Assembly (NCBI GenBank): GCA_902610905.1
Contig: CACLXS010000002.1
Span: 39,808 to 103,807 of the forward strand
Source: an uncultured SAR86 cluster bacterium
GTDB lineage: Bacteria; Pseudomonadota; Gammaproteobacteria; Magnimaribacterales; D2472
Direction: 5' to 3'
Length of the DNA: 64,000 bases
Part shown: one piece after another, positions 12,301 to 58,464 of the stretch
How positions within the stretch are numbered: the first letter of the stretch is position 1
How the letters are laid out: every line of letters begins with the position of its first letter
The notes under the pieces: generated by a model
The model's input: only the letters and a program-made list of their open reading frames with translations
What the model was told of the DNA's origin: nothing
Database searches by the model: none
Translations under genes and position numbers: made by a program

Positions 12301-12302
12301 AA

Positions 12303-13490: not shown

Positions 13491-13552
13491 AATTATATTT
13501 AAAAATTATTCGTATATTATATTACTAATAAAAGTTATTGCTTTATTCTAAA

Positions 13553-17095: not shown

Positions 17096-17158
17096 TAATT
17101 AATTCGCTTAATGGATTGGTTCTTTTGGGATTAGAGAAGATGTCATTATTTTCATTGC

Positions 17159-18385
17159 TTATTTGAAAAGCTCTTTCTCATTAATATTATTATAAAAATA
17201 CATATTACTATTATGCCAAAGTAAATCAAAATGGCCCTTATATTTACTAACCTGACAAATAATGAATTTTAACTCTTCTATCAACTTATTTTTATTTAAT
17301 GAGAGATACCCAAGAGCTGTTGTATCCATAAATGCCAAGGGATAATAAAGAGTTTTACTTTGACATTCTTTATCTTCAATCCACTTTCTAAATGGATAAC
17401 ATGTTCCATTCCTAAAGCCTATTACAGATGCGAAACCACATGATGTGTCAGTTACAATCTCATATTTATCAAGATCTTCAGCTATGGACGTTGAGTCATA
17501 TCTTAGATAATGATAGCGCACATGCTCACATTTAATATGTGTAAGCTTTTTAAAATTTTTTATTTCTTTACTCAATATTGATGAGTCAAATCCAGCATCA
17601 TATGATGGATGCAAGCCTATAATTTGTTTTTTTTCTCTAAGCCTGGTGATTAAGTCAATATGATCTGCAAGATTATACCGCCCATCATACCTTGTAATGC
17701 CTCCAACCATAAAATAAAAGGTCGATCTCATATTATTAGAACGAGTTTCATTAATAATAAATTCAAAATTATAGTAAGGGTCTCTTTTTAAGATAAAGTC
17801 TTTAAATAAGATTAATGAAGACTTCAGTCTAAAAAGCATACTTCCCTTTGACAAAATACGCTTTAAAGCTCTCAATATATTTATAGGCTTGTCAAAAGCA
17901 CATATATTATCAATATCGTGTGATACTGAGCATGTGCCTGAAGTTTTATTGTATTGAATTTCTAACTTGTTTAAAGTTGATAACTGTAGCCTAATCTCTT
18001 CTACAATTTGATCAAGAACGGGATATTTATAATTAACAGAATCTAGAGGTAAATTTCTACCATGAGCATCTGTATGTGAACTAACTAAGTTAGGGAGTTC
18101 ATTAAGCATTGAAAATGTAAGATCAACCAAATCAAATTGAATATCTATAGATTCCGATGCTCTTACTTCTTTTTTTATATCAATATTGGATAAAAAATTA
18201 GAATAAGAGCCTGGCTTGTTCTCAGATATATGAATTAAGTTTTTACGGCGATTTAGATACTCAATATCACCATAGACTATTGTTATATCAATGTCTGATT
18301 TACTAAATCTATTAAACAAAAAATCAATTACATATTTAACTTTTTTATCACTTGTTTGAGTATTATTAATAATATTGATTTTCAT
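17159..18385 (-). CDS. Polysaccharide deacetylase-like protein (CE4 / beta-alpha-barrel deacetylase superfamily, with an N-terminal DUF7033-like domain)
   Basis: 408 aa with motifs SHDIDN, STFYFM, GLHPSYD and RYHYLR. These resemble the metal-binding and catalytic blocks of deacetylase-family proteins found in O-antigen loci. The assignment is from motif recall only. Confidence 0.45.
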   Translation of the reverse strand: MKINIINNTQTSDKKVKYVIDFLFNRFSKSDIDITIVYGDIEYLNRRKNLIHISENKPGSYSNFLSNIDIKKEVRASESIDIQFDLVDLTFSMLNELPNLVSSHTDAHGRNLPLDSVNYKYPVLDQIVEEIRLQLSTLNKLEIQYNKTSGTCSVSHDIDNICAFDKPINILRALKRILSKGSMLFRLKSSLILFKDFILKRDPYYNFEFIINETRSNNMRSTFYFMVGGITRYDGRYNLADHIDLITRLREKKQIIGLHPSYDAGFDSSILSKEIKNFKKLTHIKCEHVRYHYLRYDSTSIAEDLDKYEIVTDTSCGFASVIGFRNGTCYPFRKWIEDKECQSKTLYYPLAFMDTTALGYLSLNKNKLIEELKFIICQVSKYKGHFDLLWHNSNMYFYNNINEKELFK

Positions 18386-18873
18386 TTTCTTGAAGAAATA
18401 ACTTTAGCAGGATTACCAACTGAAATTGAATATGGCGGAGTATCTTTTGTGACTATGCTCCCCGCCCCAATAACACTACCTTTTCCAACTGTAACGCCTT
18501 GTAATATTATTGCTCCAGCACCGATCCAAACATCATCTTCTATAGTAATAGGTATGTCTTTTCTTCCCTGTTGATTAATAGGAATTTCAGTGTTTTCGAA
18601 AAGATGATTTTTAGACCATATTATTACCTTTGGTCCCAATAAGACATCATCACCAAGGTTTATGGTTCCGCATAAATGAGAATTACAATTTACATAAAAA
18701 TTTTTACCAATATTTATTTGAGAAGTGGGCATTATTCTTACTCCACTCTCAATAATTCCACTTTCAATAGTTACATTTTTTCCTAACTTAACTTTACTTT
18801 TTATTTTTATTCCAGACAGTCTTAATTTATTAACTCTGATTAACGAGATAATAGTTGATATTAAATTCTTCAC
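18382..18873 (-). CDS. Left-handed beta-helix (hexapeptide-repeat) acetyltransferase
   Basis: 163 aa containing IEDDVWIGAGAIILQGVTVGKGSVIGAGSIVTKDTPPYSISVGNPAKVI, typical of Mac/LacA-type acetyltransferases. Confidence 0.85.
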   Translation of the reverse strand: MKNLISTIISLIRVNKLRLSGIKIKSKVKLGKNVTIESGIIESGVRIMPTSQINIGKNFYVNCNSHLCGTINLGDDVLLGPKVIIWSKNHLFENTEIPINQQGRKDIPITIEDDVWIGAGAIILQGVTVGKGSVIGAGSIVTKDTPPYSISVGNPAKVISSRK

Positions 18874-20036
18874 TTTTTAAATCTCCCAAAAGTATTTTTT
18901 AAAAAAGGTTTCCAATCTCTAGTGCAAAAACTTGCATGAATGACAAATGGATTTAAAAAATATCTAAAAAATAAGATTAAATTTTTAAATATATGATCTC
19001 CTTTAATAACATTAACTAGATGTAATGTGTTATAGGTATATATTTTAGAGGTAACTGTTTGTTTTCTATTATTTAATTTACAGGTCAGCTTTTGGTTTGT
19101 CGCATTAAGCATATCAATATAAGGAATATTTACCCCAGCTAATTTTCCAGCATAATGCCACATCATATATCTAAAGTTTATTTCCATTAAAAAATATTTA
19201 TTTCTTTTAATACAATATTTAAACTCTGGCTGAACTATGCCTGTAAAGTTTCCTTCCTTTACAAGTCTTCGTGCAGATTCATAAACATCTTTATTCCACT
19301 TTGCTAATGATGATGCAAAAACGCCAAATTGCCAGGGTGACTGGCTAAGCTTTCTTCCTGTCCAATAGGCAATAATTTTTCCTTCGGAACATATACATAG
19401 ACAAGACCATACTTCTCTTGGATCAGCCTCGATTACTTCAGATACCAAAAAACTATCGTCCTCACTTTTTGAATTTAAAAATGAAATTAATTCAGAATTA
19501 CAGGAAAATTTTTTTGCTCTAAAATAGTTCTTGCTTGTGAGCTCTCGATTATCACGAGATTCAGGTTTAACTACGCAAGTAAAATCTTTAATTTTCTTAA
19601 TATTTTCAATTATACTTTTTCTAGTTCCACTATAGGTTTCTGGACAGTCTACCTGAGCACTTTTAGCTAATTTATACTGATTGATTTTTGAATTAAAGCT
19701 TGTATTAAATTGGTGGCTAGTCCAGAGAACATTTTGTTCTAGATTGCTTTGACAAATTTCATCTAAATGCCAATCTGCTGTTGCAAACAAAATAATTTTT
19801 TTTGAATTATTTTGTTTTGCGAAATCATTAATAGTTTTTAAAATAGAAGAATTTTTATTGTATGGAATAAAGGTGTCGATAAGCTTGCTGACTGAAACCA
19901 TTGCATTTGAATCAGCAACAATTGCAATGTTGCAATGTCCGTAAAGGCTTCTTACTATTCCATATGCATTTATATGTCCGCCCAAGACTAAAGCGATATT
20001 TTCTTCTAATTTAAGATTCTTTTTAAAATGTTCCAT
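18870..20036 (-). CDS. ATP-grasp family ligase (COG3919-type carboxylate-amine ligase)
   Basis: 388 aa. The N-terminus ALVLGGHINAYGIVRSLYGH matches the COG3919 pre-ATP-grasp pattern. Also present are VVKPESRD, EVIEAD and the Mg/ATP-site-like FLMEINFR (E-x-N). Confidence 0.65.
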   Translation of the reverse strand: MEHFKKNLKLEENIALVLGGHINAYGIVRSLYGHCNIAIVADSNAMVSVSKLIDTFIPYNKNSSILKTINDFAKQNNSKKIILFATADWHLDEICQSNLEQNVLWTSHQFNTSFNSKINQYKLAKSAQVDCPETYSGTRKSIIENIKKIKDFTCVVKPESRDNRELTSKNYFRAKKFSCNSELISFLNSKSEDDSFLVSEVIEADPREVWSCLCICSEGKIIAYWTGRKLSQSPWQFGVFASSLAKWNKDVYESARRLVKEGNFTGIVQPEFKYCIKRNKYFLMEINFRYMMWHYAGKLAGVNIPYIDMLNATNQKLTCKLNNRKQTVTSKIYTYNTLHLVNVIKGDHIFKNLILFFRYFLNPFVIHASFCTRDWKPFLKNTFGRFKK

Positions 20037-21127
20037 ACATGTTTATAACCAAATTGATTGAAGAGTTTTATAGCAATATAGCTCCAGCGAGTAAATTTTA
20101 CAGTATTTGAAACCAGAAAATATATTGATTTATAAAAATTGTTATTTGGTACAAGCTTAAGAATTAGTTTTTTAAAATGATATTTAATAAAAAATAATAA
20201 ATAGTATATTCCTTTAAGTGGTTTGACTGATGATGAAGAAAATGACTGAATCATAAAACTTTCTTTAAAAGAATGGTTATGAGTATCAAATTCACAAATT
20301 AAAGAGATTCTATTTTTTAATCTCCATTTTTTTAAGGTGAGTTCATTTACTTTATGATACGAGTATGTCTCCTTAAAATATTCTCTTTTTTTACTTAATT
20401 GTGTTGGAGGCTCGATAACGAAATTTGGGAATAAAAAATTACCTAATGAATAATATACAGGCTTATTATAAAATCTTTCAGATGGGAGAATTATATGAGG
20501 GTGCATTCCAATAATCGCTTTAACATTTTGATGATATAAAATTTTCTTTGCAAGATTTCTAGTATAGGGATGTGGAATTGGAACATGCTCAACACCCCAA
20601 TGAATAAATATAATAAAATCTTTCTCTTTATGTTTGTTCAATTGTAAACTTATACTCTTATAATCACCTGCCATTAACCCAGGCTTTGAATCTGTTGCTA
20701 AAGCTATATTATTAAGTGTAGGCTTATTAAATGCGCAACATCCCAATATCCATATATTGTTACTCAAAAGTGTTGGTTGCTCAGCTTCATCTTTGTTAGA
20801 ACCAGCACCAAATACTTTAGAGCCAGACGTTTCTATTATTCTTTTTATATATCCAATATTATCAAGCCCTCCGTCATGAATATGATTATTAGCAAGTCCG
20901 ATATGTGTTGGTTTTAGATTGCCAATTCCACGAATTAAACTATTTTCAGATGACAAAACTGTAGATTTATTTTTAATACTAGATGAATAAATTGATTGTT
21001 CAATATTTGTAATAAGGAAATCAAAATTCTTATTAGGATATTCAATTTCAAATGATTTATTTTCTAAGCAACCTACAAAACATGTATCACCAGTGAATAT
21101 AGCTTTTCTACTAATATTATTTATCAT
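20006..21127 (-). CDS. CapA/PgsA-like (PGA_cap) metallophosphoesterase-fold protein
   Basis: 373 aa with GDTCF, GLANNHIHDGG, FGAG, IFIHWGVEH, IIGMHPHI and YYSLGNFLF. These follow the order of conserved blocks in the poly-gamma-glutamate CapA family. Confidence 0.7.
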   Translation of the reverse strand: MINNISRKAIFTGDTCFVGCLENKSFEIEYPNKNFDFLITNIEQSIYSSSIKNKSTVLSSENSLIRGIGNLKPTHIGLANNHIHDGGLDNIGYIKRIIETSGSKVFGAGSNKDEAEQPTLLSNNIWILGCCAFNKPTLNNIALATDSKPGLMAGDYKSISLQLNKHKEKDFIIFIHWGVEHVPIPHPYTRNLAKKILYHQNVKAIIGMHPHIILPSERFYNKPVYYSLGNFLFPNFVIEPPTQLSKKREYFKETYSYHKVNELTLKKWRLKNRISLICEFDTHNHSFKESFMIQSFSSSSVKPLKGIYYLLFFIKYHFKKLILKLVPNNNFYKSIYFLVSNTVKFTRWSYIAIKLFNQFGYKHVWNILKRILN

Positions 21128-22340
21128 AATTATGTGTAATAAAATTTCTTAAAATTAATAGCAAAGCTAAATAAAATATAAATGAAACCGCAACATATGC
21201 GTTCAATAACAAAATATAGTTCCCTTCATAATTATTAAAAATATATAAAAGTAACATATTTGTAATGCCCAAATAAGTAATATTCCAATACAAAGAAATA
21301 TCCTGCTTACTATAAACATTTGTTGTCATGGAAACTGGTACAACAATGAGTTTTATAAAGAATATTGGAACAAGAATCGTAGCTAATTGAAAGATACCCT
21401 GCCAATTTTCATCAATGATCCCATGATTAATATTTTGAGAAAAAAAGTAAGCAGAGCTAAAAATTACTCCAGAGATAGCTACCAAAATTAAAGTTGTTTT
21501 GTTGAATAGCTTTAATGCTTTTACTTTACTTTCCTTAATTTTTGATGCGGATCTATAATAAACTCTTCCAACCGCTGATCCAATTAAAGCAGATGGAGCT
21601 CCCAATAACCTTTCTATGTATGCATAATGTCCTAATACAACCTCACCTCCAGAGCCTCCAATAAAAAATGGAATAGAGCTTTTTCCCATTGTATTAATGA
21701 AAATACTTGGTGCAGAAAATTTCGGAAATTTATAATGACGATTAAAAATTAATAATATTTTTTTTATTTTGAATTTAATTTTTAAATTAGGCCAAATTAA
21801 ATAATTAACTAGCATTAATGAAAGAATATGCGCCAAAAGCATCACATAAATATTGCTTATGAAAAGGTATCCAAAAATTATTTGAATTGATACCAATACA
21901 ATATTTTTAATAATTTGAGATTTAGCAATCTTAGAATATTTTTCTTGTCTGTTGTAAAAAGAATAGTTTATATTCCAGAGAGCTGTAAAAAATATTCCCA
22001 AAGGGACTGCAAAAAGAAATATTTCTAGATGATCATAAACTATTACGCTCAAGAGTGATGCAATTAAAGTAAATACAATAGAAATTAAAGAGGCTATAAA
22101 TGAGAGCAGAATTGTTGTGCTATACAAAATCTTTATATGATGATTTTTTGCTATCACAATTGCATGCTCTAACCTTAAGGAGGCTGCAGAAGAGACAAGA
22201 TTTACTATAGCGATATATAAGGCATATATTGCAAAGGCTTTTGGTTCGTATATCTTAATCAATATAGGTAAAGACAATACGACAATTATTTGAGATGCGG
22301 TAGATGCAGAGGCTAGGTTTATAACTGATCTAATAAACAT
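21117..22340 (-). CDS. wzx: Oligosaccharide flippase (Wzx, MOP superfamily)
   Basis: 407 aa with about 12 TM segments. The N-terminus NLASASTASQIIVVLSLPILIKIYEPKAFAIYALY is typical of Wzx/RfbX. Confidence 0.8.
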   Translation of the reverse strand: MFIRSVINLASASTASQIIVVLSLPILIKIYEPKAFAIYALYIAIVNLVSSAASLRLEHAIVIAKNHHIKILYSTTILLSFIASLISIVFTLIASLLSVIVYDHLEIFLFAVPLGIFFTALWNINYSFYNRQEKYSKIAKSQIIKNIVLVSIQIIFGYLFISNIYVMLLAHILSLMLVNYLIWPNLKIKFKIKKILLIFNRHYKFPKFSAPSIFINTMGKSSIPFFIGGSGGEVVLGHYAYIERLLGAPSALIGSAVGRVYYRSASKIKESKVKALKLFNKTTLILVAISGVIFSSAYFFSQNINHGIIDENWQGIFQLATILVPIFFIKLIVVPVSMTTNVYSKQDISLYWNITYLGITNMLLLYIFNNYEGNYILLLNAYVAVSFIFYLALLLILRNFITHNYDK

Positions 22341-22352
22341 TTCTAGCTAATT

Positions 22353-23486
22353 TTAATTTTTCAAAACTTCTTCTATAATTTTATTTTGTGCACTCTCTGA
22401 AAGATATGGATGCATTGGAAGACTAAGGACACTTTTAGAGAGCATTGCAGAAACTTCTACACCTGATGATACTCTTGGATAATGAGAATATCCCTTTTGT
22501 GAGGATAAAGGTATGGGATAATAAACAACAGAGGGTATTCCTGAAGATTTAAGGTTTTTTTGAAAAAGGTCCCTATCTTTATCATTTAAAATCAAAGTAT
22601 ATTGAGCCCATGCGCTAGACATATAATCTGGAATGTTGGGGGTAAGATATTTGACTGATAAAGCTTCTGTATAAATATTTGCAACGTTGTTTCTGAGTTT
22701 CAATTCTTCTTCAAATAGTTTTAATTTTTCAATTAAGATAGCTGCTTGAATGGTATCAAGCCTTGAATTCAAACCCACTATGACATTATCGTATTTTTCA
22801 GAGCCTTTGCCATGCAGCCTTAAAGAATTTATCTTCTGAGCATAATCATCGTTATTTGTAAAAATGGCACCTCCATCACCATAGCAACCCAAAGGTTTAG
22901 CGGGGAAAAAACTTGTAGTAGTTATGTCACCCAATGAACCTACTTTTGTATTCCTAAATGACGCACCAAAGCTTTGAGCACCGTCTACAAGAACTTTTAT
23001 ATTTTCTGAATGTGCTATTTTTGATATGACATCTATATCTGCTGGTCTTCCAAATAAATCAACCGCTATTACACATTTAGGGTTAAGCCCTTCGTTGCGG
23101 CAATCAATTATTGCCTGTTTAAAACTTTCAGAATCGATGTTAAAGGAATCTTTTGAAACATCAACAAAATATGGGGTTGCACCTAGTTGTGCTGGAGCTT
23201 CCGCAGATGCAACATATGTAAATGAGGGAATAAATACAACATCTCCTCTGCCAATACCCCAAGTCATCAAGGCAAGGGTAAGTGCATCAGTCCCGTTAGC
23301 ACAAGTGAGCGCATGCTTAGCTTTTGTAAAATTTTTCAGCTGCTCTTCAAAAGTTTTTACCTCTGGGCCCATAATATATTGACCATGATCTAGGACATTT
23401 TTTATGGCAATATCTAATTTTGATCTAATTAGTTTTTGTTGTGCAACTAAATCTATAAACTTTGCAGGTTCTGAGTATTCACTCAT
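22353..23486 (-). CDS. wbpE: DegT/DnrJ/EryC1-type PLP aminotransferase, WbpE-like (UDP-2-acetamido-2-deoxy-3-oxo-glucuronate aminotransferase)
   Basis: 377 aa containing GPEV..FE, CANGTDALTLAL and the FFPAKPLGCYGDGGA lysine block. It lies next to wbpD-, wbpB- and wbpA-like genes. Confidence 0.8.
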   Translation of the reverse strand: MSEYSEPAKFIDLVAQQKLIRSKLDIAIKNVLDHGQYIMGPEVKTFEEQLKNFTKAKHALTCANGTDALTLALMTWGIGRGDVVFIPSFTYVASAEAPAQLGATPYFVDVSKDSFNIDSESFKQAIIDCRNEGLNPKCVIAVDLFGRPADIDVISKIAHSENIKVLVDGAQSFGASFRNTKVGSLGDITTTSFFPAKPLGCYGDGGAIFTNNDDYAQKINSLRLHGKGSEKYDNVIVGLNSRLDTIQAAILIEKLKLFEEELKLRNNVANIYTEALSVKYLTPNIPDYMSSAWAQYTLILNDKDRDLFQKNLKSSGIPSVVYYPIPLSSQKGYSHYPRVSSGVEVSAMLSKSVLSLPMHPYLSESAQNKIIEEVLKN

Positions 23487-24063
23487 TATTTATCTCCACA
23501 AGGCTGTCTTGCTCTATAAGTTTATATTTTGTTCCTTCGATTGGGCATATTAAATCATCTCCTAGGCGCCCACCAGCTTTACTAATCCACCCTATCCTTT
23601 TTGCAGGAACGCCTGCCATCAATGCAAATGGTGGAACATCTTTAGTAACTAGTGCTCCAGCGCCAATAAAGCAATATTCACCTAAATTATTACCACAAAT
23701 GATAGTTGCATTTGCTCCTATAGATGCTCCTCTTTTAACAAGAGTTTTACGATACTCATGTTTACGAACTATCTCTGACCTAGGATTGTTAACATTAGTA
23801 AAGACACAAGAAGGCCCACAAAATACACCATCTTCTATGAAAACTCCCTCATATATACTTACATTATTTTGTATTTTTACACTATTTCCTATATTTACAT
23901 TTGGTCCAATGCAAACATTTTGACCTAACGAACAATCTTTACCAATATTACTATTTTGTAGAATATGGCTAAAATGCCATATTTTTGTACCGGTTCCAAT
24001 ATTCACATCACTATCAATATAAGACGACTCATGTATATATACATTTTTAAAAATACAACTCAT
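23479..24063 (-). CDS. wbpD: WbpD/WlbB-like hexapeptide N-acetyltransferase (UDP-2-acetamido-3-amino-2,3-dideoxy-glucuronate N-acetyltransferase)
   Basis: 194 aa containing IHESSYIDSDVNIGTGTKIWHFSHI...VFTNVNNPRS...GANATIICG..LGEYCFIGAGALVTKDVPPFALMAGVPAKRIGW. Confidence 0.8.
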   Translation of the reverse strand: MSCIFKNVYIHESSYIDSDVNIGTGTKIWHFSHILQNSNIGKDCSLGQNVCIGPNVNIGNSVKIQNNVSIYEGVFIEDGVFCGPSCVFTNVNNPRSEIVRKHEYRKTLVKRGASIGANATIICGNNLGEYCFIGAGALVTKDVPPFALMAGVPAKRIGWISKAGGRLGDDLICPIEGTKYKLIEQDSLVEINNE

Positions 24064-25055
24064 AAGTCTTTAATTTTAACTGATTTATTTTGAATTGAAG
24101 ATAGGGATGAGGCAGAAAGAACCTTTAATACTTTCAAGCCCTCGTTAAAATCTGTTAAGGGGGGCTGGCCTTTACAAACTACTTCTATAAAATGGTTACA
24201 CTCATTTTTTAATGGTTCAGATTTTTCAACCCTTATGTAATTTTGTTCGCCCTTTGTTATCGTTGGCAGTTCTTTGAGAGTCTTAATTGTATGATGGTAT
24301 ATAGAAAGTTTCTTTTCCCAGACTTGCGTATCATCAAATATAGCCATTCCTTTATTTCCTATAACAACTAATTTTTGTTCTTTGCAAGGATGAAGCCATG
24401 AAACGAATACATGAGCTGAAAATTGAGATTTAAAATCTAAATGTAAAATAGAAGTATCAGCAATATTTGGTTGGATAATGCATGATGATGTTGTCTTTAC
24501 TATCTGAGGCTCTTCTTCGGCCAACGATAAAATCATTGAAATATCATGAGGTGCAAAGCTCCAAATCACATCTTCTTCAGTACGGATTTTACCAAAACTC
24601 AAGCGATTAGAATAAATGTAATTTAAATCTCCTAATTCTCCTGATTTGACAATTTCTTTTAATTTAACAAAAACCGGATGATATTGAAGAAGATGTCCTA
24701 CCATAAGTTGCACATTATTTTTTTTTGCAGTTTCTATCATTAAATTGGCCTCACTTACATTCATAGCTAGAGGCTTTTCAACAAATACATGTTTTTTTGC
24801 ATTCATAACATCAATTGCCAAAGATGCATGAAACTCAGCTGGGACAGCTAAAACAACAGCATCGATATCTTTATTAGTAAGGACTTCTGAAAAATTGAAA
24901 TGTGGAACATCATATTCATTTGCAAAAAAATTAGCTACATCGTTGTTAGGATCGCATACCGCTCCTAATGCACCGATTTCAGCATAATTTCTTACTAAAT
25001 TTTTACCCCAATAACCACATCCAACAACGGCAATATTTCTTTTTATTTTAACCAT
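24060..25055 (-). CDS. wbpB: Gfo/Idh/MocA oxidoreductase, WbpB-like (UDP-GlcNAcA 3-dehydrogenase)
   Basis: 331 aa with Rossmann IAVVGCGYWGKN and VFVEKPLA. It sits between the wbpA-like and wbpD-like genes. Confidence 0.75.
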   Translation of the reverse strand: MVKIKRNIAVVGCGYWGKNLVRNYAEIGALGAVCDPNNDVANFFANEYDVPHFNFSEVLTNKDIDAVVLAVPAEFHASLAIDVMNAKKHVFVEKPLAMNVSEANLMIETAKKNNVQLMVGHLLQYHPVFVKLKEIVKSGELGDLNYIYSNRLSFGKIRTEEDVIWSFAPHDISMILSLAEEEPQIVKTTSSCIIQPNIADTSILHLDFKSQFSAHVFVSWLHPCKEQKLVVIGNKGMAIFDDTQVWEKKLSIYHHTIKTLKELPTITKGEQNYIRVEKSEPLKNECNHFIEVVCKGQPPLTDFNEGLKVLKVLSASSLSSIQNKSVKIKDL

Positions 25056-25082
25056 TCTTAGATATTAAAATTATGAGTGATA

Positions 25083-26378
25083 TTAAAGTCTAAAAACATC
25101 AAAACCTTCCTCGATTAAACTTTCTTTTTTGTAAATTGATTTTATGTCAGCTATTACTGGTGATAATCCTTTGCACATATCTCTTAAATACTCACAGCTA
25201 AGATTGCGGTACTCTTCATGTCCTACAGCAACAATGATTGAATCAAGCTTGTGTCTTACTTCATCTATTTTTGTTAATTTAATGCCGTAAGTTTGTTCAA
25301 CATCGACTGGATCAGCCCATTCATCTGAAACAATAACATTTGTACCCCATTTTTTAAGTTCAGCAATAACATCAATTATTTTAGTATTTCGAATATCAGG
25401 ACAATTTTCTTTAAAAGTGATTCCTAAAACACCTACATTACTACTATGAATATCAATCCTATTTAATACCATTTTTTGTATTAACTTATTGACCACATAT
25501 AAAGCCATATTATCGTTAATCCTCCTTCCAGCTAAAATTACTTCAGGGTTATATCCAACTTGTTCAGCCTTATGTGTTAAATAGTATGGATCTACTCCTA
25601 TACAATGTCCTCCTACAAGTCCTGGCTTAAAAGGCAAAAAATTCCACTTGCTTGCAGCTGCATCTAAAACATCAAGAGTATCAACCTCAAGTCTATTAAA
25701 AATTACTGAAAGTTCATTCACTAAAGCAATATTTAAATCTCTCTGAGTATTCTCAATAACTTTTGCAGCCTCTGCTACTTTGATACTTGAAGCCTTAAAG
25801 GTTCCTGCTGTAATAATAGTTTTATATAGATCATCAATTTTTTTACTAGTCTCTGGTGTTGAGCCACTTGTAATCTTAACAATTTTAGTGAGAGTATTTA
25901 CCTTATCACCAGGGTTAATTCTTTCTGGGCTATATCCACAAAAAAAGTCTTTATTAAATATTAACTGTGAATAGGATTCAAGTATTGGTACGCAAACTTC
26001 TTCAGTACAACCAGGATAAACAGTTGATTCGTAAATAACAATATCATCAACCTTTAGATATTTACCTATCATTTTACTTGCATTAATAATTGGATTTAAG
26101 TTTGGCCGATTAACTTCATCAATAGGAGTTGGAACTGTAACGATGTATACATTAACGTCTTTTAAATCATCAAGGTTATAGGTAAAGTTGAGATGTCTAG
26201 ATTTCTGAATATCCTCACTGTTTACTTCAAGGGTTTGGTCTATCCCTTTTTTTAAATCTTCAATTCTTGATTCACTTATATCAAAACCAATAGTTTCTAT
26301 AGAATTGCCAAATTCTACTGCTAGCGGTAAACCAACATACCCTAAACCAATTATTGCTACTTTTTGTTCATCTATCAT
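25083..26378 (-). CDS. wbpA: UDP-N-acetyl-hexosamine 6-dehydrogenase (WbpA/WbpO/TviB family nucleotide-sugar dehydrogenase)
   Basis: 431 aa containing VAIIGLGYVGLPLAVEF, YSPERINPGD and the catalytic GGHCIGVDPYYL. Confidence 0.85.
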   Translation of the reverse strand: MIDEQKVAIIGLGYVGLPLAVEFGNSIETIGFDISESRIEDLKKGIDQTLEVNSEDIQKSRHLNFTYNLDDLKDVNVYIVTVPTPIDEVNRPNLNPIINASKMIGKYLKVDDIVIYESTVYPGCTEEVCVPILESYSQLIFNKDFFCGYSPERINPGDKVNTLTKIVKITSGSTPETSKKIDDLYKTIITAGTFKASSIKVAEAAKVIENTQRDLNIALVNELSVIFNRLEVDTLDVLDAAASKWNFLPFKPGLVGGHCIGVDPYYLTHKAEQVGYNPEVILAGRRINDNMALYVVNKLIQKMVLNRIDIHSSNVGVLGITFKENCPDIRNTKIIDVIAELKKWGTNVIVSDEWADPVDVEQTYGIKLTKIDEVRHKLDSIIVAVGHEEYRNLSCEYLRDMCKGLSPVIADIKSIYKKESLIEEGFDVFRL

Positions 26379-26428
26379 AAAAACTTTTCCAAATATAAGA
26401 AATTAATTATCCCCTTGGATATTCTTTT

Positions 26429-27331
26429 TTATCTTTCTCTATATTGTTGGATAAAGATAAATATCAAAGATAAGAATGCTCCAAAAAACGTGCTGACTAT
26501 TACTATTATTGATCTTGATGGAGATGATTTATATTCAGGTACTATCGGTGGATCAATTATTTTAAAAACATAACTGTCGGTAGATGATGCAAGCATTAAT
26601 GTTCGCATTTGATTTTCAAGCAGCCTGGATGTTACCTCTTTGATAGATTGAATACTAGTAGTATTTTGAGCTTCATTTAAATAGTCAATTGATTTTTTAG
26701 CCAACATTTTATCTGCCTCACGCATACTTTCATTTATTTGTTCGATAATAATATTAAGCCATTTTTGAGCAATAATAGGAGATTTGTGATTAACGCTCAC
26801 TGAAATAAATGAGGTTCTACTATTTTCATTAACAGTTATATTTTCTTTGTATACTCTATAAGCTTCTTGAAGTGATGGTTGGTTTTTCTCACTATATTTT
26901 GAAGAACCTATCCAGGTTTGTGTATCATTTTTATAGATTTTATTGTCGTAAACTATAGTGTTATTTTCAGCATCCCATTTTTTTACAGCCATCAAGTTTT
27001 CTAATTGAATATTGGGTATAAAAAAATTAGCAAAAAAATCAAAAGATTTTATTCTTTCAATACCCTCTTTACTTTTACTAGTCTGATCAACTGGAATAGA
27101 AACTCCAGCCAAAGAGCCTAAAGAAGATAAACTTCCTAGTTTTGATGACATGGCATCTTGTGAATTTGATGGTAATAAAAGAACTTTAGATGAATATATG
27201 TTAGCCAAACTTAATGCATATAGAACTGAACAAACTGCAAAAAATGTAGATATACTTAGTATAGTAAGCTTTTTTTTCCACAGAATAGTAAAGATTTCCT
27301 TTAGATTAATTTCGTCACTAGCTGTATCCAT
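26429..27331 (-). CDS. wzz: Polysaccharide chain-length determinant (Wzz, PCP-1 family)
   Basis: 300 aa containing EINLKEIFTILWKKK plus TM1, a periplasmic coiled region, and a C-terminal P-rich segment plus TM2 (SPSRSIIVIVSTFFGAFLSLIFIF). Confidence 0.8.
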   Translation of the reverse strand: MDTASDEINLKEIFTILWKKKLTILSISTFFAVCSVLYALSLANIYSSKVLLLPSNSQDAMSSKLGSLSSLGSLAGVSIPVDQTSKSKEGIERIKSFDFFANFFIPNIQLENLMAVKKWDAENNTIVYDNKIYKNDTQTWIGSSKYSEKNQPSLQEAYRVYKENITVNENSRTSFISVSVNHKSPIIAQKWLNIIIEQINESMREADKMLAKKSIDYLNEAQNTTSIQSIKEVTSRLLENQMRTLMLASSTDSYVFKIIDPPIVPEYKSSPSRSIIVIVSTFFGAFLSLIFIFIQQYRER

Positions 27332-27399
27332 AATATATTACCACTTTCAATATGAATTAATTATATCAAGATATATATTAAAAATAATAAAAATTATGT

Positions 27400-27486
27400 T
27401 GGTACCCGAGGCCGGACTTGAACCGGCACGATATTTCTATCGAGGGATTTTAAGTCCCTTGTGTCTACCAATTCCACCACTCGGGC
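27400..27486 (-). tRNA. tRNA-Leu (anticodon UAA), CCA encoded
   Basis: 87 nt, read as the reverse complement: GCCCGAG TG GTGGAATTGGTAGACAC A AGGGA CTTAAAA TCCCT, a long variable arm CGATAGAAATATCGT, GCCGG TTCAAGT CCGGC CTCGGGT A CCA. Confidence 0.9.
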
Positions 27487-52020: not shown

Positions 52021-53070
52021 ATGAATTATTCAACAGATAACACTAGGATTATTGATAGGCAAAAAGTTCCTGCTCCATATGAATTGGTAAATAAGCACCC
52101 TATAAATAATGACATTGCTAAGCTTGTATATGGAACAAGACAGGAAATTAGCCAAATTTTGCATAACAAGGATGATCGCTTATTAGTGGTTGTTGGTCCA
52201 TGTTCTATTCACGATCCTGACAGTGCGATTGAATATGGAAAAAAATTAATCGAACAAAATATTAAATTCAAAGAAGAGCTGTTAATAGTGATGAGGGTTT
52301 ATTTTGAAAAACCCAGAACAACTGTTGGATGGAAAGGTCTTATAAACGATCCTGACCTCAATGAAAGCTTCAAAATTGGTAAAGGTGTTGAGATGGCTAG
52401 GAAGCTTTTAATAGATCTAGCTAAATTAAATCTACCTGCAGGTACAGAGTTTCTTGACCCTATTTCTCCTCAATATATTACTGATATAATTTCTTGGGGA
52501 GCTATTGGTGCTAGAACGGCTGAAAGTCAAATACATAGAGAATTAGCATCAGGACTTTCTTGCCCTATTGGTATAAAAAATGCTACAAACGGTGGTCTTA
52601 AAGCAGCTATAGATGGAATTCAAGCAGCAAATCACTCTCACGTTTTCCTTGGCGCTACCAAAGAATCTGATATAGCTATGTTAAAAACAACAGGTAATAA
52701 TGATGCCCATATTATTCTTAGAGGTGGCAAAGAGCCAAATTATGATAGTGATTCTATTAATGAGACTTCAATAGCGCTTAGAGAAGCTGAAGTTAATGAA
52801 TCAATTATGATTGATGCTAGTCATGGTAATAGTCAAAAACAATTTAAACAGCAACTGCCTGTAATTGAGAATATCTCTAGTCAAATTTCAGATGGTAATA
52901 AAAACATCAAAGGTGTAATGATAGAGAGTCACTTGGTCGAAGGTAATCAAAAAATTTCCGATTCTCTTGTTTATGGTCAAAGCATCACTGATGCATGTAT
53001 TGGCTGGGATGATACTGTTTCATGTCTGCAAAGTTTGAGCGACGCAGTTGCAAAAAGAAGGAGCTCATAA
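52021..53070 (+). CDS. aroG: 3-deoxy-7-phosphoheptulonate (DAHP) synthase, class I (AroF/G/H type; feedback specificity not determinable)
   Basis: 349 aa containing LLVVVGPCSIHD, YFEKPRTTVGWKGLINDP, GARTAESQIHRE and DASHGNS. Confidence 0.9.
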   Translation: MNYSTDNTRIIDRQKVPAPYELVNKHPINNDIAKLVYGTRQEISQILHNKDDRLLVVVGPCSIHDPDSAIEYGKKLIEQNIKFKEELLIVMRVYFEKPRTTVGWKGLINDPDLNESFKIGKGVEMARKLLIDLAKLNLPAGTEFLDPISPQYITDIISWGAIGARTAESQIHRELASGLSCPIGIKNATNGGLKAAIDGIQAANHSHVFLGATKESDIAMLKTTGNNDAHIILRGGKEPNYDSDSINETSIALREAEVNESIMIDASHGNSQKQFKQQLPVIENISSQISDGNKNIKGVMIESHLVEGNQKISDSLVYGQSITDACIGWDDTVSCLQSLSDAVAKRRSS

Positions 53071-53878
53071 GCTATTGAAAGATTCTGATAGAATTTCCTT
53101 CTCAAAAGATGTAGCTGAAACACTAGGCATCGAAGCTGCAATAATACTTGAGCTTTACCAGCAAAATAAAATCACCTATTCCGATGATTCTGAGCTCTTT
53201 AAAAGTTTAGTAAAGCAAGAATTGCCTTTCATTGAGCATGCACTTATTGAAGCATCTCTAAAAAAACTTCTGCATTACAAGCTGATTTCAAATACACAAA
53301 AAATAATAAACAAAAAGAATTATGATATAAAACCCGCTCAAGCTAACAACGCAAAAAAATTAAAAATTGATTCAAATTGGTCACCATCCAATGAAGCTTT
53401 AGAAATTCTAAATATGGGCGAAATTCCAGAAGTTTTCATTTCAAGCAAGGTAAAAGAATTTATATTATATTGGTCAGAGAGAGGACAAGAGCGAAATAAC
53501 TGGAATACTTCTTTTATTGATTACATTAGGAGAGAATGGGCAAAAGAACAAAGTTCAACCAAAGGGCTTCCTCATACTATAGATTTTGAATGGTCTCCAA
53601 GTAACGATGCTTATGATATCCTTGAGTTATCTGATATCTCAAAAGAATCTGCTTCAAAATATTTGAGAGAATTTATACTATACTGGAAAGAGAATGGTTC
53701 TGCTTTCACAACTTGGAACTCTAAATTTATTGAGCATGTAAAAAGAAGGCATATACCAGACAACCAAAATTTAAAAAATGAAGAAAATCAAAAACATACT
53801 GAACCAGGAAAATATGGAAAAGACTTTTCAGCAAGAAAAGGTGACTCCTCTTGGGCATCAGAAATTAAGTTCGAGTAA
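53048..53878 (+). CDS. Protein with two tandem DnaT-C-terminal-like (DnaT_2) domains; lambda-type replication accessory protein
   Basis: 276 aa. The two repeats are WSPSNEALEILNMGEIPEVFISSKVKEFILYWSERGQERNNWNTSFIDYIRREW and WSPSNDAYDILELSDISKESASKYLREFILYWKENGSAFTTWNSKFIEHVKRRH. Both follow the DnaT pattern W.P......L...G........F..YW...G.....W..KF. An alternative TTG start at 53075 would remove the 23-nt overlap with the aro gene. Confidence 0.6.
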   Translation: MQKEGAHKLLKDSDRISFSKDVAETLGIEAAIILELYQQNKITYSDDSELFKSLVKQELPFIEHALIEASLKKLLHYKLISNTQKIINKKNYDIKPAQANNAKKLKIDSNWSPSNEALEILNMGEIPEVFISSKVKEFILYWSERGQERNNWNTSFIDYIRREWAKEQSSTKGLPHTIDFEWSPSNDAYDILELSDISKESASKYLREFILYWKENGSAFTTWNSKFIEHVKRRHIPDNQNLKNEENQKHTEPGKYGKDFSARKGDSSWASEIKFE

Positions 53879-54425
53879 AGAAAAATATATTGAGTGCATC
53901 GACAATTTATTTCTTAAGCTAGAATTGGCATATCACTATCAATTTTATAAAGTCTTTGGAACCGATGATAGGCTTAACGAGGGTAAAAAACTCTGGGCAA
54001 TAAGTTTGAAATCTTTTTCTCCAGAAACAATCACAGAAGCAACTGAAAATGTAATAGGTGCTCAGTCATATTTACCGACACTAACAGACTTTCTTAAAGC
54101 TTGTTCAGAAATAAATAGCCATAACGGCTTTCCTTCAGTAGAAGAGGCATATATTGAAGCAAGAAAATCATACGCACCAAGAACAGAATATTCATGGAGC
54201 CACCCTATCGTTTATTTTGCGGGAAAAAAACTAGGTTGGAATTTCTTAGATGAAAAAGATAGTAGAGAATTGTTTTCTTCTTTTAAGAAAATTTTTAATA
54301 AACTTAAAGAAGATATCTTAGATGGCAAAGAGTTGCAGATTCCAACTCCAGACTTTAATAAATCTGAAAATAAGCCAATGAACAAGAAGCTTTTTGAAAG
54401 CCTCAGAAAAAAGCACAACGTATAG
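53814..54425 (+). CDS. Lambda replication protein P-like (putative replicative-helicase loader)
   Basis: It is collinear with my remembered lambda P sequence. IDNLFLKLELAY..., LPTLTDFLKACSE, NGFPSVEEAYIEA, YSWSHPIVYFAGKKLG and DEKDSRELFSSFKKIF match lambda INGVFSQLLATF..., LPSPGQFVAWCRE, AGLPNVSELVDMV, YPWKSNAHYWLVTNL and TDAELRRKAADEL. I prefer ATG 53814 (AGGAAAAT upstream) over the track start at 53778. Confidence 0.6.
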   Translation: MEKTFQQEKVTPLGHQKLSSSKEKYIECIDNLFLKLELAYHYQFYKVFGTDDRLNEGKKLWAISLKSFSPETITEATENVIGAQSYLPTLTDFLKACSEINSHNGFPSVEEAYIEARKSYAPRTEYSWSHPIVYFAGKKLGWNFLDEKDSRELFSSFKKIFNKLKEDILDGKELQIPTPDFNKSENKPMNKKLFESLRKKHNV

Positions 54426-54487: not shown

Positions 54488-55357
54488 ATGACCAAGAATA
54501 TAAGAATATCTTTATATATCCTCATACCAATAGTTCTTTGGATGTTCTCCGGTTTTTTTGTGACAGATAAAAAAGAACCAGAGAATATAAAAAATGAGCT
54601 CTATGCTGTGGGCATTTCCACAAGCAATGCGATTGATTATCAGCCTACAATTAAATTAAAAGCTACTTCTCAATCTGAAGCTAGAGTTAATGTTAAAGCA
54701 AAGACCTCAGGTGAGGTAGTAAAAATTGGTTCAACTCAAGGACAATTTGTAAAAAAAGATTCTGTTCTTTGTAGTTTGGGTGTTGTCGAGTTAAATAGAA
54801 CAGAGGTAAAGGCACCCTTTTCTGGATTCATTGAACAAATTGTAAAACCTGGAAATTTTCTTGAAAGAGGACAGGTATGTGCAACGATCATCCAACTTAA
54901 CCCAATTATATTTTCTGCTGAGGTTCCTGAATTTAATATTAATAAAGTTGAAACAGGTCAAGAGGTTCTTATAAGTTTAATTACAGGTGAAATCATTAAG
55001 GGTGATTTAACATTTGTTTCAAAAAGTGCTTCACCTTCAACAAGAACATTTAAAGTTGAATCTGAAATTGAAAATAAAGATGGAGCGGTAAGAGACGGTA
55101 TTACTGCAGAAATGATAATAAAAACAAAATTTGTAAAGGCACACAAAATTTCGCCATCAATTTTGCTATTAAATGATAATGGAAAAATTGGCGTTAGATC
55201 TGTTATAGATGGAACTGTTGTTTTTCATAATGTGACAATACTAGAGGACTCTGAATCAGGATTATGGATTACTGACATACCTGATTCGCTTGATCTTATT
55301 ATCCAAGGTCAAGGGTTTGTTGAGGACGGTCAAAAAGTGGTTACGAACCAAATATGA
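54488..55357 (+). CDS. RND efflux periplasmic adaptor (membrane fusion protein), short
   Basis: 289 aa with an N-terminal TM anchor, a lipoyl/beta-barrel pattern (G.V..i....G..VKKD.VL..L) and a 4-nt overlap with the RND pump gene. Confidence 0.8.
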   Translation: MTKNIRISLYILIPIVLWMFSGFFVTDKKEPENIKNELYAVGISTSNAIDYQPTIKLKATSQSEARVNVKAKTSGEVVKIGSTQGQFVKKDSVLCSLGVVELNRTEVKAPFSGFIEQIVKPGNFLERGQVCATIIQLNPIIFSAEVPEFNINKVETGQEVLISLITGEIIKGDLTFVSKSASPSTRTFKVESEIENKDGAVRDGITAEMIIKTKFVKAHKISPSILLLNDNGKIGVRSVIDGTVVFHNVTILEDSESGLWITDIPDSLDLIIQGQGFVEDGQKVVTNQI

Positions 55358-58300
55358 CAAAAATTATTGATTTTGCTTTATCAAAAGCAAAAACAACTTT
55401 AATGATTGCATTTATGATCATTATTGCTGGATCATATGCAAGGCAAGAAATATCTATTGCTGCTTCTCCTAACGTTCAACTACCCTTTATAAGCGTTTCG
55501 GTTTATTTAGATGGAGCATCCCCTAGCGATACTTCAAGATTAATAGCTAAGCCACTTGAAAATAGATTAATGACAGTGTCTGGAGTGAAAAGCATCAGTT
55601 CAAGAAGTACCTTAAGTTTTGCGAGAATATTTCTTGAGTTTGAAGTTGGTTACGATATGGATGAAGCTTTGGTGGATATTAAACAAGCTGTCGAAGAAAC
55701 TAAATATGAGCTGCCAAGGGAAGCAGAAGATCCTCAAATTTCTGAATACTCAGAAGCAAGTTTTCCCGTAATGAATATTAGTATTGTTGGTAATAGCTCA
55801 ATTAGACAAAAAGTATTTTATGCAAAAGAATTAAAAGATAAAGTTGAGAGCCTTGAAGAAATCTTACAAGCTAATCTTTCTGGAGCACCTGAAGAAGTTC
55901 TTGAAGGAGTAATAAATAAATCTCGAATGGAATCTTATGAAGTTACTCTAAGTGATATTTATTATTCAGTATCAAATAATAATTTAATTATACCTGGAGG
56001 CACACAAGATACGGGTAAAGGTAGTTTTAATATCGAAGTGCCTAGCGTTATTGAAACAGCTCAGGATGTTTACTCTATTCCGATTAAAGTTACCAAAGAT
56101 GCCATAGTTACTCTAGGGGATATTGCAGATATTAAAAGGACTTTTAAAGATTTTACATCTTATGCAAGAATTAACGGCCAAGATGCAGTTACATTAGAGG
56201 TTCAACTAAGAGATGGAGCAAATTCTATAGATGCTTCTTATGCAATAAAGGATATATTAAAGGACTATGAAAAAACTCTTCCAGAAAATTTAGAAATATT
56301 AGTCACCCAGGACGATACTTTGTACTCCATTGATATGGTTAAAGAGCTAAATGGAAATATTATAGCTGCGGTTGTTTTAATCATGGTTCTCGTTATAGCA
56401 AGTATGGGATTTAGAGTGTCGATGCTAGTAGGTCTCTCAATACCTTTTTGTTTTCTATTTACTTATCTGGTTTTCTTTTCTCTTGGTATGGAGATAAATT
56501 TCCTTGTGATGATGGGGCTGCTTCTTGGCATGGGTATGTTAATCGATGGTGCAATTGTAATTACTGAATATGCAGACAAAAAAATTGGAGAAGGTCTTTC
56601 AAGATCAGAGGGTTATAAAATGGCATCTAAAAGGATGTTTTATCCAATAGTAGCTTCCACAGGAACAACTATGGCTGCTTTTATACCAGTAATGTTGTGG
56701 CCAGGTTTTACTGGTCAATTTATGCGATACCTTCCAATAACTGTTTTTACAGTATTAGTAGGCTCTCTTATTTATTCACTGATTATGATTCCTGTTTTAG
56801 GGTCATATCTTGGACAACAAGATTCAGCACTTAATAAAGATGAAGGCAGGGATTCTATATTTAAAAAATTAACTGAAATATATGGAAAAAGAATTACAAA
56901 ATTTGTAAAAAATCCAATTGAAACTTGCATAGCGGTTGCTTCAGTATTATTAATAATAATTATGAGTTATTCCTTTTTTGGAAAAGGAACAATTTATTTT
57001 GCCCTGGTTGATCCTGTAGAAGCAAATGTGACTATTAAGGCTAGAGGCAATTATTCTGCAATAGAGACAAAAGAAATAGTTCAACAAGTCGAAGAAAGAT
57101 TCTTAGAAGTCCCAGGATTAGGTAGTGTTTATTTAAGAGCAGGTAGTGAATGGTGGAATAGAGAAGCAGATAAAATTGGTGGAGGATACGTAGAAGTCGC
57201 GCCTGCAAGCAAAAGAGGAATATCAGGATTAAAAATAATGGAGCTTCTAAGTGAATCAGTAAATGATATGCCAGGCATATTTGTTGAAATTTCTCCTGAT
57301 TTAGGAGGACCATCTTTCGATAATCCAATTGAATTAGATCTCTATGGTAATAGTGAAAATGATGTGAATGCAGCTGCAGATATTATTGAGACTCACATGA
57401 GAAATAATATCAAAGGTCTAAAGAATATTACTTCATCAAAATCATATCCATCAGTTGAATGGAGTGTTGAAGTAGATAAACAAAAGGCGGCTCAATTAGG
57501 TGTTAGTGTTGCTGATGTAGGGGCATTAGTTCAAATGCTAACTAATGGATTCAAAGTTGGTCAATATAGGCCAGATGATTCAAGAGATGAGGTGGAAATC
57601 AGAGCTCGGTTCCCTCAATCTGATAGAACAATTACCGGAATAAGAAATTTAAATGTAATAACTCTAGAGGGTTTGGTTCCAGTTAGTTCTTTTATTTCAG
57701 TGATGCCAAAAGAAAATAGACAATCTGTAAATAGAAGAGATGGAAAATTTACACAACAGATTGGTGCTGCAACTATAGATGAATCTAAAGTTTCAGAAAA
57801 AGTCAAAGAAATTGATTTATGGCTAAAATCTAGTGATTTTGGCGAAGGGATAACCTATAAATTTACTGGCATGGCAGAAGAAACTGAAGATGTGAATAAC
57901 TTTATGATAGCTGCAGGTATTATGGCTGTATTTATAATGCTGCTAATGCTTTTAACCCAATTTAATAGCTTTTATCAGTCGTTCATAATACTTACATCGG
58001 TAACAATTTCTTTTGTTGGTGTCCTATTAGGTTTATTAATAACAGGAAAGCCATTTAGTACAACAATGACTGGTTTGTCGATTGTTACCCTGGCTGGGAT
58101 TGTAGTTAATAATAATATTGTACTAATTGATACCTTTAATAAACTAAGAGAAGAATCTCCACATATTGAAAACTCAATTCATATAATAAATGCATGTAAA
58201 CAAAGATTAAGGCCAATCTTACTTACATCCCTCACAACTATTTTTGGTCTGTTGCCCTTAGCGATGGGAGTTAGTCTAGACATTATTGCAAGGGATATTG

Positions 58301-58464
58301 CCCTTGGAAGCCCAATTGTAGATTGGTGGTCAAATCTAGCAGTTTCTATTGTTTTTGGTTTGGCATTCAGCACATTTATAACTTTGATATTAACGCCAGC
58401 TGTATTATCTCTGCCGTATGCTTTAAGAAATGATTTCAAAAAGTTTTTTAAAACCGCTAATTAA
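55354..58464 (+). CDS. RND efflux transporter (AcrB/AcrD/AcrF family)
   Basis: 1036 aa with 12-TM architecture, two large periplasmic loops and typical GMLIDGAIV and NNNIVLID motifs. Confidence 0.92.
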   Translation: MTKIIDFALSKAKTTLMIAFMIIIAGSYARQEISIAASPNVQLPFISVSVYLDGASPSDTSRLIAKPLENRLMTVSGVKSISSRSTLSFARIFLEFEVGYDMDEALVDIKQAVEETKYELPREAEDPQISEYSEASFPVMNISIVGNSSIRQKVFYAKELKDKVESLEEILQANLSGAPEEVLEGVINKSRMESYEVTLSDIYYSVSNNNLIIPGGTQDTGKGSFNIEVPSVIETAQDVYSIPIKVTKDAIVTLGDIADIKRTFKDFTSYARINGQDAVTLEVQLRDGANSIDASYAIKDILKDYEKTLPENLEILVTQDDTLYSIDMVKELNGNIIAAVVLIMVLVIASMGFRVSMLVGLSIPFCFLFTYLVFFSLGMEINFLVMMGLLLGMGMLIDGAIVITEYADKKIGEGLSRSEGYKMASKRMFYPIVASTGTTMAAFIPVMLWPGFTGQFMRYLPITVFTVLVGSLIYSLIMIPVLGSYLGQQDSALNKDEGRDSIFKKLTEIYGKRITKFVKNPIETCIAVASVLLIIIMSYSFFGKGTIYFALVDPVEANVTIKARGNYSAIETKEIVQQVEERFLEVPGLGSVYLRAGSEWWNREADKIGGGYVEVAPASKRGISGLKIMELLSESVNDMPGIFVEISPDLGGPSFDNPIELDLYGNSENDVNAAADIIETHMRNNIKGLKNITSSKSYPSVEWSVEVDKQKAAQLGVSVADVGALVQMLTNGFKVGQYRPDDSRDEVEIRARFPQSDRTITGIRNLNVITLEGLVPVSSFISVMPKENRQSVNRRDGKFTQQIGAATIDESKVSEKVKEIDLWLKSSDFGEGITYKFTGMAEETEDVNNFMIAAGIMAVFIMLLMLLTQFNSFYQSFIILTSVTISFVGVLLGLLITGKPFSTTMTGLSIVTLAGIVVNNNIVLIDTFNKLREESPHIENSIHIINACKQRLRPILLTSLTTIFGLLPLAMGVSLDIIARDIALGSPIVDWWSNLAVSIVFGLAFSTFITLILTPAVLSLPYALRNDFKKFFKTAN

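Follow-up and report, generated by a model that had tools for sequence, protein, structure and literature searches.

The question raised by this locus is whether two genes of phage pedigree, dopC and dopE, which lie side by side among the housekeeping genes of an uncultured SAR86 (Magnimaribacterales) genome, provide the cell with a loader for its replicative helicase, DnaB. The stretch analysed is a window of 64 kb, in which the pair is flanked by a DAHP synthase gene and an RND efflux operon; both neighbours, already named in the initial annotation of this DNA, were confirmed by Pfam. Judged from sequence, the pair is the SAR86 member of the known dopCE family, whose function is unproven, and we read dopCE as a phage replication pair that was domesticated and now most likely serves to recruit and load DnaB. 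The pair is a resident, vertically inherited module and no decaying prophage, and its two genes share an overlap of about 90–100 nucleotides (nt) that is conserved across the family and constrained in both frames.

Relationship of the second gene product, DopE, to phage lambda P was indicated by three comparisons. The second open reading frame (ORF2) matched Phage_lambda_P (PF06992) with an E value of 1.5e-8 and 35 bits against a gathering cutoff of 26, over profile positions 2–160 of 162, and PHROG 109 ('P-like helicase loader') with 4e-15; a DopE family profile, which was built without lambda P to avoid circularity, was aligned by hhalign with lambda P residues 34–228 (E 7e-6, probability 84%). 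All three agree with the collinearity to lambda P claimed initially, and the blocks quoted for it are real: in the DopE/lambda P alignment, YLPTLTDFLKAC stands opposite FLPSPGQFVAWC and GFPSVEE opposite GLPNVSE. Domain boundaries of lambda P were taken from PMC12661323, in which domain I is the N-terminal lasso helix. The N-terminal helix of DopE (MKKIKNILNQ) is kept throughout the family and lines up with the N-terminus of lambda P; the predicted N-terminal peptide, which starts inside dopC, reads MKKIKNILNQENMEK. At the opposite end, L201 and L209 are conserved in the C-terminal helix, which aligns with the C-terminal lasso. In lambda P this lasso binds DnaB at the DH-LH site, between docking and linker helices that belong to adjacent subunits; it probably makes the first contact with DnaB and contributes to ring opening (PMC12661323).

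The first gene product, DopC, is a tandem DnaT-domain protein. ORF1 contained two stretches of Pfam DnaT (PF17948; E 2.8e-38, 129.9 bits against a cutoff of 25), as had been proposed from inspection of the letters; a check with Phage_lambda_P and DnaT profiles had been suggested at the same time, and matches above cutoff were obtained with both. An AlphaFold model computed with 41 homologues (mean predicted local distance difference test, pLDDT, 75) comprised, from the N-terminus, a domain of four helices, a disordered linker and a pair of three-helix bundles; the best Foldseek match was the crystal structure of E. coli DnaT84-153 with single-stranded DNA (ssDNA) (4ou6, probability 0.99), and Salmonella DnaT (6aeq) was also matched. 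In the region of repeat 1, W102, P104, Y132, W133 and W143 are invariant. Repeat 2 was aligned by hhalign with E. coli DnaT residues 89–148 (E 4e-4), and in this mapping DnaT Y127, W128 and K143, which matter for ssDNA binding by mutation (PMC4132743), correspond to DopC Y203, W204 and K217, all invariant or nearly so in DopC. The helices of the N-terminal domain (residues 11–17, 19–29, 39–49 and 55–67) were modelled at pLDDT 78–86; a structure search with this domain gave weak Fur/Zur-like fold matches only, no Pfam family was matched by the N-terminus at E<=1, and the predicted fold is possibly of the winged-helix type. Descent of this N-terminus from lambda O was not reproduced here, in view of the missing Pfam match and of an hhalign probability of 0.1% for the DopC family against lambda O. 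NCBIfam held no model for DopC or DopE, a sequence search of PDB chains returned chance matches only for DopC and none for DopE, and none of 50,697 cultured phage genomes was matched by DopC in tblastn.

The start of dopC was placed at the TTG at 53075 (Table 1) because this TTG is conserved after the aroG stop, is preceded by a purine-rich motif, and has in-frame stops upstream of it in four loci. The aligned TTG is found in the 19 SAR86 loci examined, 1–8 nt past the aroG stop, with an in-frame stop directly before it in 4 of the 19. A Shine-Dalgarno-like AAGGAG (53058–53063) lies ahead of it, inside the last aroG codons, and other SAR86 loci keep the motif (AAGGAG/AGAGG) shortly ahead of their TTG (aligned positions L009-L057). 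The TTG at 53048 given initially as the start of the first gene is too far upstream. The TTG start together with a Shine-Dalgarno-like sequence inside aroG suggests translational coupling to the DAHP synthase gene and low expression; aroG and dopC are probably co-transcribed.

For comparison, one genome per GTDB species was scanned with a DopC alignment as seed; 571 stretches matched, and counts were made on the best 80 of the 571. A dopE gene was carried by 71 of these 80 related genome loci, always in frame +1 relative to dopC, with an ATG 86–101 nt before the dopC stop in 70 of the 71 (exactly 101 nt in 47). Overlaps of 65 or 101 nt had been correctly computed for the window from the two possible ATG codons; the first of these, from the ATG at 53814, is confined to the closest relatives, and we place the start at 53778, with an overlap of 101 nt, because both this ATG and the N-terminal peptide are conserved and the peptide matches the lambda P N-terminus. 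In frame 0 the overlap encodes the DopC tail NEEN..EPGKY..D-S-S-W-A (DSSWA at 53843–53857), and W260 of the D-x-S-W-A motif is invariant family-wide, from SAR86 to Halioglobus and Thalassolituus. In an alignment of the window with 38 related SAR86 loci, third-codon-position entropy was 1.22–1.25 in the part read as dopC only and 1.23–1.44 in the part read as dopE only, as against 0.85 (dopC frame) and 0.81 (dopE frame) in the overlap; indels were absent from 53790–53879. As overlaps of just 1–8 nt are found in lambda O/P and in the O-like/P-like pairs of Pseudomonas phage PAJU2 and Marinomonas phage P12026, the long overlap is a feature of the chromosomal family. It goes unmentioned in the text of Brezellec et al. 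2017 (PMC5509034). The initial annotation had noted its unusual length and had taken it to suggest obligatory coupling of the two genes: the overlap is real and conserved, and it may reflect such coupling. Programmed +1 frameshifting to a DopC-DopE fusion was considered from the frame relation; no supporting signal was seen, and no dedicated search was made.

Residence of the pair in the SAR86 chromosome is concluded from the same gene order in 44 SAR86 species and from divergence in step with the neighbours. The central block aroG-dopC-dopE-adaptor was present in all 44; in these, pairwise distances of DopC and of DopE were correlated with those of AroG (r 0.88), and those of DopC with those of DopE (r 0.91; Mantel p 0.001). 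The longer order rluB-scpB-scpA, aroG-dopC-dopE-RND adaptor-RND pump-xseB-ispA-dxs recurs in relatives with 71–77% identical DopE, the order scpA, aroG-dopC-dopE-RND is kept across SAR86, and the same gene order is seen in SAR86 relatives at 37–92% DopE identity. The GC content of the dopCE region (0.34) showed no local anomaly in a window of 32%. No iterons or multi-copy repeat family was found in or near dopC; DnaA-box matches were at or below chance, the nearest more than 3 kb off within the pump gene, with no cluster at the locus. No integrase, repressor or structural phage gene was seen among the ORFs of the window, which were read by eye. Synteny, congruent distances, the codon-position entropy pattern and the lack of iterons and DnaA boxes place the pair among 'resident' genes in the sense of Brezellec et al. 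and exclude a decaying prophage; the absence of a prophage had been stated initially and is borne out, and a check of synteny and conservation across the lineage had been suggested as well.

In the publication that named the genes, dopE was described as lambda-P-like and dopC as an O-like N-terminus (HTH_36, by HHpred) with a DnaT C-terminal motif, the hosts being Cellvibrionales and dciA-lacking Oceanospirillales; in these clades dopE was the only gene that tracked the loss of dciA/dnaC (PMC5509034). The pair had been likened to dopC/dopE initially, and the scan with DopC of the window indeed retrieved genera or families of the published clades: most of the best 80 stretches came from SAR86 genomes, either single-cell or metagenome-assembled (SAR86A and SAR86E among them), and after these ranked Pseudohongiella, Halioglobus/Haliea, Zhongshania, Thalassolituus, Parathalassolituus and Oceanobacter. 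Homologues of DopC and DopE came overwhelmingly from marine metagenomes and SAR86 genomes. SAR86 as a dopCE host is new; this deep branch of order rank (Magnimaribacterales) stands outside Pseudomonadales, is not listed in PMC5509034, and lies outside the coverage of that study. In the literature searched, no paper treating SAR86 together with DciA was found, and DciA (PF05258), DnaC and lambda P are not among the markers tabulated for SAR86.

Shared with the published pairs are a lambda-P-profile protein encoded directly after a DnaT-domain protein, a non-prophage housekeeping context, the lack of iterons, the D-x-S-W-A motif in the DopC C-terminus, and the overlap in frame +1 with its ATG 86–101 nt inside dopC; gene order and overlap are the same as in SAR86 in the loci of Thalassolituus, Oceanobacter, Halioglobus/Haliea and Zhongshania. 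The genomic neighbours differ, and the C-terminal helix of SAR86 DopE is four residues shorter than that of the published clades. DopC differs as well: by Pfam it has three DnaT stretches in Zhongshania, Thalassolituus, Halioglobus and Pseudohongiella (published ORFs about 390–430 codons stop to stop) and two in the SAR86 group of the window, including SAR86A and SAR86E (about 267 residues). Three repeats are the normal state in the family. Because DopC of the published clades has three repeats, the two-repeat form is a shortened one and no gain; the initial suggestion of a variant with tandem DnaT domains was thus right only in part.

Two observations on labels belong here: a typical SAR86-type dopCE locus (L055, PCAW01000055.1) is labelled 'Methanobacteriota archaeon NP128', and a DopC-like protein of 321 residues (P0404, in the cluster of P0243), found on 66 contigs, carries the label Chloroflexota; a mistake in binning or labelling is the probable cause in both cases, and a wider host range the less likely one.

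As to phage relatives, cultured phages encode P-like proteins at 24–27% identity. On some uncultivated viral contigs of IMG/VR, HTH_36+DnaT proteins are directly followed by weak lambda-P-like ORFs (L102:1065-2445, L108:1477-2917, L104:5395-7141), and on other viral contigs (L093-L101) small tandem-DnaT proteins are encoded. Because HTH_36+DnaT proteins followed by P-like ORFs are encoded there, the sequences suggest that the arrangement of HTH-DnaT plus P predates domestication and was already present in phages; the DnaT domain may have been part of the phage ancestor and not an addition after domestication.

A different state of the locus was found in nine SAR86 genomes, in which dopE is missing from the syntenic position (L064-L069, L074, L078 and L083, including the long-read metagenome-assembled genome LRMED-380). 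The flanks are the same, and the RND adaptor follows directly after dopC in 7 of the 9, the two other contigs ending earlier. DopC of these genomes has three DnaT repeats and 346–377 residues (e.g. L083:6001-7050, L064:5986-7077), and extends for about 30 residues beyond the conserved S-S-W to an end of the form ...L(S/D)....L..LK.KH.I, which matches the C-terminal lasso of DopE (in the window KPMNKKLFESLRKKHNV). When scored against a profile of the DopE C-terminus, 6 of 8 complete fused proteins were beaten by <=0.06% of composition-matched shuffles; canonical DopC tails did not stand out in this way. In marine metagenomes this fused DopC is abundant: over 120 protein clusters, drawn from a multitude of independent data sets, match at >=70% identity with 99–100% query coverage. 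The fusion has the appearance of a deletion that removed DopE domains I–III and joined the lasso to DopC; such a fusion would link DopC physically to the putative DnaB-binding element, and is counted in favour of helicase loading by dopCE. Between scpA and aroG the dopE-less lineage has an inserted gene, nadE-like by eye, for a glutamine-dependent NAD synthetase (L064:3097-4707, L083:3134-4765); the spacing of scpA and aroG in the window is 176 nt.

Arias-Palomo et al. (Cell, 2013) are reported to have found that the isolated helicase-binding domain of DnaC can load and activate DnaB in vitro; if so, a lasso-only loader is not implausible. A further scheme is offered tentatively, as one that we think less likely than not. 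In it, DopCE would be the sole helicase loader of SAR86, with DopC, instead of the lambda-P-like core, as its indispensable part; one widespread sublineage would have lost dopE except for its last 30 or so codons, which were fused in frame to a three-repeat DopC to give a minimal loader made of a covalent mini-filament of the DnaT type on ssDNA and a single DnaB-binding lasso helix, and the overlap of about 100 nt would have been the precursor that allowed fusion in one step.

The mechanism proposed for dopCE, a mini-filament combined with a lasso loader, is based on the role of the lasso in lambda P, on the filament data for DnaT and on the aligned contact residues; domain identities, gene order, starts and overlap are observed, and the rest is reasoned from homologues. 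C-terminal domains of E. coli DnaT assemble into a filament along ssDNA in which each domain-domain interface holds two nucleotides, and it has been proposed that DnaT recruits DnaB/DnaC (PMC4132743, PMC13377028). Given two nucleotides per interface, the linked repeats of DopC may act as a pre-assembled short filament, i.e. a covalently joined two-unit DnaT mini-filament that would mark exposed ssDNA at oriC opened by DnaA or at abandoned forks recognized by PriA; PriA, DnaA and DnaK are all carried by SAR86 genomes (Supplementary Table 1 of PMC11582366). DopE would attach by its C-terminal lasso to the docking-helix/linker-helix site of the DnaB hexamer and open the ring in the manner of lambda P, and DopC, coupled to it through its tail or N-terminal domain, would hand the DopE-DnaB complex to the ssDNA, a role played by O for P in lambda and by DnaT for DnaC in E. 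coli. With a weak TTG start for dopC and a dopE start nested inside it, a single mRNA would yield both proteins, each in small amounts. The pair may serve loading at oriC, restart at forks bound by PriA, or both; neither role excludes the other.

Several points weigh against this reading. The structure prediction for DopE was unusable (pLDDT 45, from a shallow alignment of 70–91% identity), so that its fold and its interface with DnaB are argued from the sequence. The ssDNA-contact residues are kept in part: in the alignment mapping, DnaT K133 and R146 are without a match in DopC. The contact between DopC and DopE is putative, and in the literature to 2025 the loading of DnaB by DopE is a proposal only (PMC5509034); papers of 2024 and 2025 cite dopE only as a suggested loader, in line with what had been stated initially.

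Of the other explanations, the one that fares best is that the pair serves chiefly to restart replication and not to initiate it at oriC, with DopC acting like DnaT downstream of PriA and DopE loading helicase at abandoned forks, possibly beside another loader encoded elsewhere in the genome. The PriA-PriB-DnaT restart pathway has the DnaT domain as its signature (PMC13377028, PMC4132743), PriA is present across SAR86 genomes (PMC11582366), and the option was raised by Brezellec et al. (PMC5509034); however, it was dopE alone that tracked the loss of dciA/dnaC in the published clades, which points to a general loader, and, the two roles being compatible, we consider a role mainly in restart unlikely. 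A domesticated anti-phage or exclusion function, in which the P-like protein would hold DnaB against the loaders of incoming phages and would not be the loader of the cell, is very improbable: lambda P does out-compete DnaC for DnaB (PMC5509034, PMC12661323) and an anti-phage side benefit was speculated on by Brezellec et al. (PMC5509034), but neither DopC nor DopE matched any PADLOC defence model, the genes sit in a housekeeping operon and not in a defence island, and their universal, vertical retention is unlike that of typical defence genes. That the pair is a remnant of a prophage or mobile element without cellular function, as the phage pedigree of both proteins, the P-like proteins of cultured phages and the HTH_36+DnaT/P-like arrangement on viral contigs might suggest, is scarcely credible for a locus that is shared with its flanks by 44 SAR86 species in congruence with AroG, with both frames and the overlap intact throughout and with a window free of phage genes, repeats and GC anomaly.

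Helicase loading by dopCE can also be set beside other systems. Like lambda O/P, the pair combines a protein collinear with P domains I–IV, including both terminal helices, with a partner encoded immediately upstream; unlike it, DopC has no Phage_rep_O domain and its gene contains neither iterons nor an origin, the overlap is 101 nt instead of 1–8 nt, and dopCE is fixed in a cellular chromosome. As in E. coli dnaT-dnaC, an ssDNA binder of the DnaT type is encoded directly upstream of the loader, and the DnaT C-terminal fold with its Y-W and K contacts is kept; DopE, however, is P-like and not an AAA+ protein like DnaC, DopC carries two tandem DnaT domains per chain, and the N-terminal oligomerization domain and PriB-binding linker of DnaT are unmatched in DopC, whose N-terminal helical domain is unrelated, the alignment covering DnaT 89–148 only. 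VdhL1/VdhL2 of Vibrionaceae (Tominaga et al. 2024, PMC11087808) are likewise phage-derived, distantly lambda-P-like replacements of dciA with a putative O-like partner; they have measured DnaB-stimulating activity, are undetected by PF06992 and were acquired repeatedly (PMC11087808), whereas dopCE passes PF06992 and is vertically inherited in SAR86.

Table 1. Features of the dopCE locus and its immediate neighbours (positions in the 64-kb window).
Feature	Position	Strand	Description
aroG-type DAHP synthase	52021..53070	+	Pfam DAHP_synth_1, E 1.2e-90; upstream neighbour of dopC
dopC	53075..53878	+	267 codons; TTG start 4 nt after aroG stop
DopC layout			From the N-terminus: helical domain, linker, two ssDNA-binding DnaT repeats, then a conserved tail
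DopC N-terminal four-helix domain	53102..53275	+	Residues 10–67; motif FS..vAeTlG.e.AIiL conserved
DnaT repeat 1	53366..53560	+	W.P ... F.LYW.ERG ... NW; best PF17948 stretch, residues 107–171 of the 276-residue ORF
DnaT repeat 2	53573..53752	+	W.P ... F.LYWKE.G ... TWNSKF; second Pfam stretch
Dual-coding overlap	53778..53878	+	101 nt; DopC tail in frame 0, DopE N-terminal helix in frame +1
dopE	53778..54425	+	215 codons; lambda-P-like putative DnaB loader, collinear with lambda P domains I to IV
DopE core	53895..54338	+	Residues 40–187, PF06992 envelope; equivalent of lambda P domains II and III (hhalign)
DopE C-terminal helix	54363..54422	+	KPMNKKLFESLRKKHNV; aligns with lambda P C-terminal lasso
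RND membrane-fusion adaptor (HlyD-type) and AcrB-type pump	54488..58464	+	Pfam; conserved position; context, outside the dopCE system

The remaining ORFs of the window appeared housekeeping-like by eye (pheST, gyrA, rpsA, aro and his genes, dxs), together with a polysaccharide cluster. The latter, at 11600–27400, is a run of about 15 minus-strand genes that by eye resembles a surface-polysaccharide cluster, with ORFs for sugar dehydrogenases, an aminotransferase and glycosyltransferases and others that are flippase-like or chain-length-determinant-like; it has the lowest GC content of the window (0.27–0.30). No Rfam match was obtained between 51.5 and 55 kb, and promoter and terminator scans remained at chance level. 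Between 44000 and 64000 the sign of the GC skew flips near 52 kb and returns near 62 kb, matching a 10-kb plus-strand block from aroG to dxs. An origin of replication at the locus, considered from the turn of the cumulative skew near 52 kb, was ruled out: since the turn coincides with the plus-strand block and there is no DnaA-box cluster, it is an effect of the strand of transcription.

SAR86 genomes are systematically without Rep helicase and the MutS domain II marker and keep PriA, DnaA, RecF and DnaK (Supplementary Table 1, PMC11582366); this reduced replication/repair toolkit bears on fork restart in the clade. SAR86 is among the most abundant bacterial clades of the surface ocean, and the fixation of dopCE across it, an order-level lineage beyond the original clades, widens the reach of the system and raises the question of whether domestication took place earlier than thought or the pair passed between marine lineages. 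The dual-coding overlap and the fusion of DopC with the lasso are the most useful new leads, as they give concrete hypotheses on which parts contact DnaB and which are dispensable. A closed genome of a cultured SAR86 isolate exists, so that the genomic prediction (no dciA, dnaC or dnaI) can be checked directly. The wider question is whether every bacterium needs a dedicated helicase loader, and dopCE is a candidate for closing the last gap among free-living lineages.

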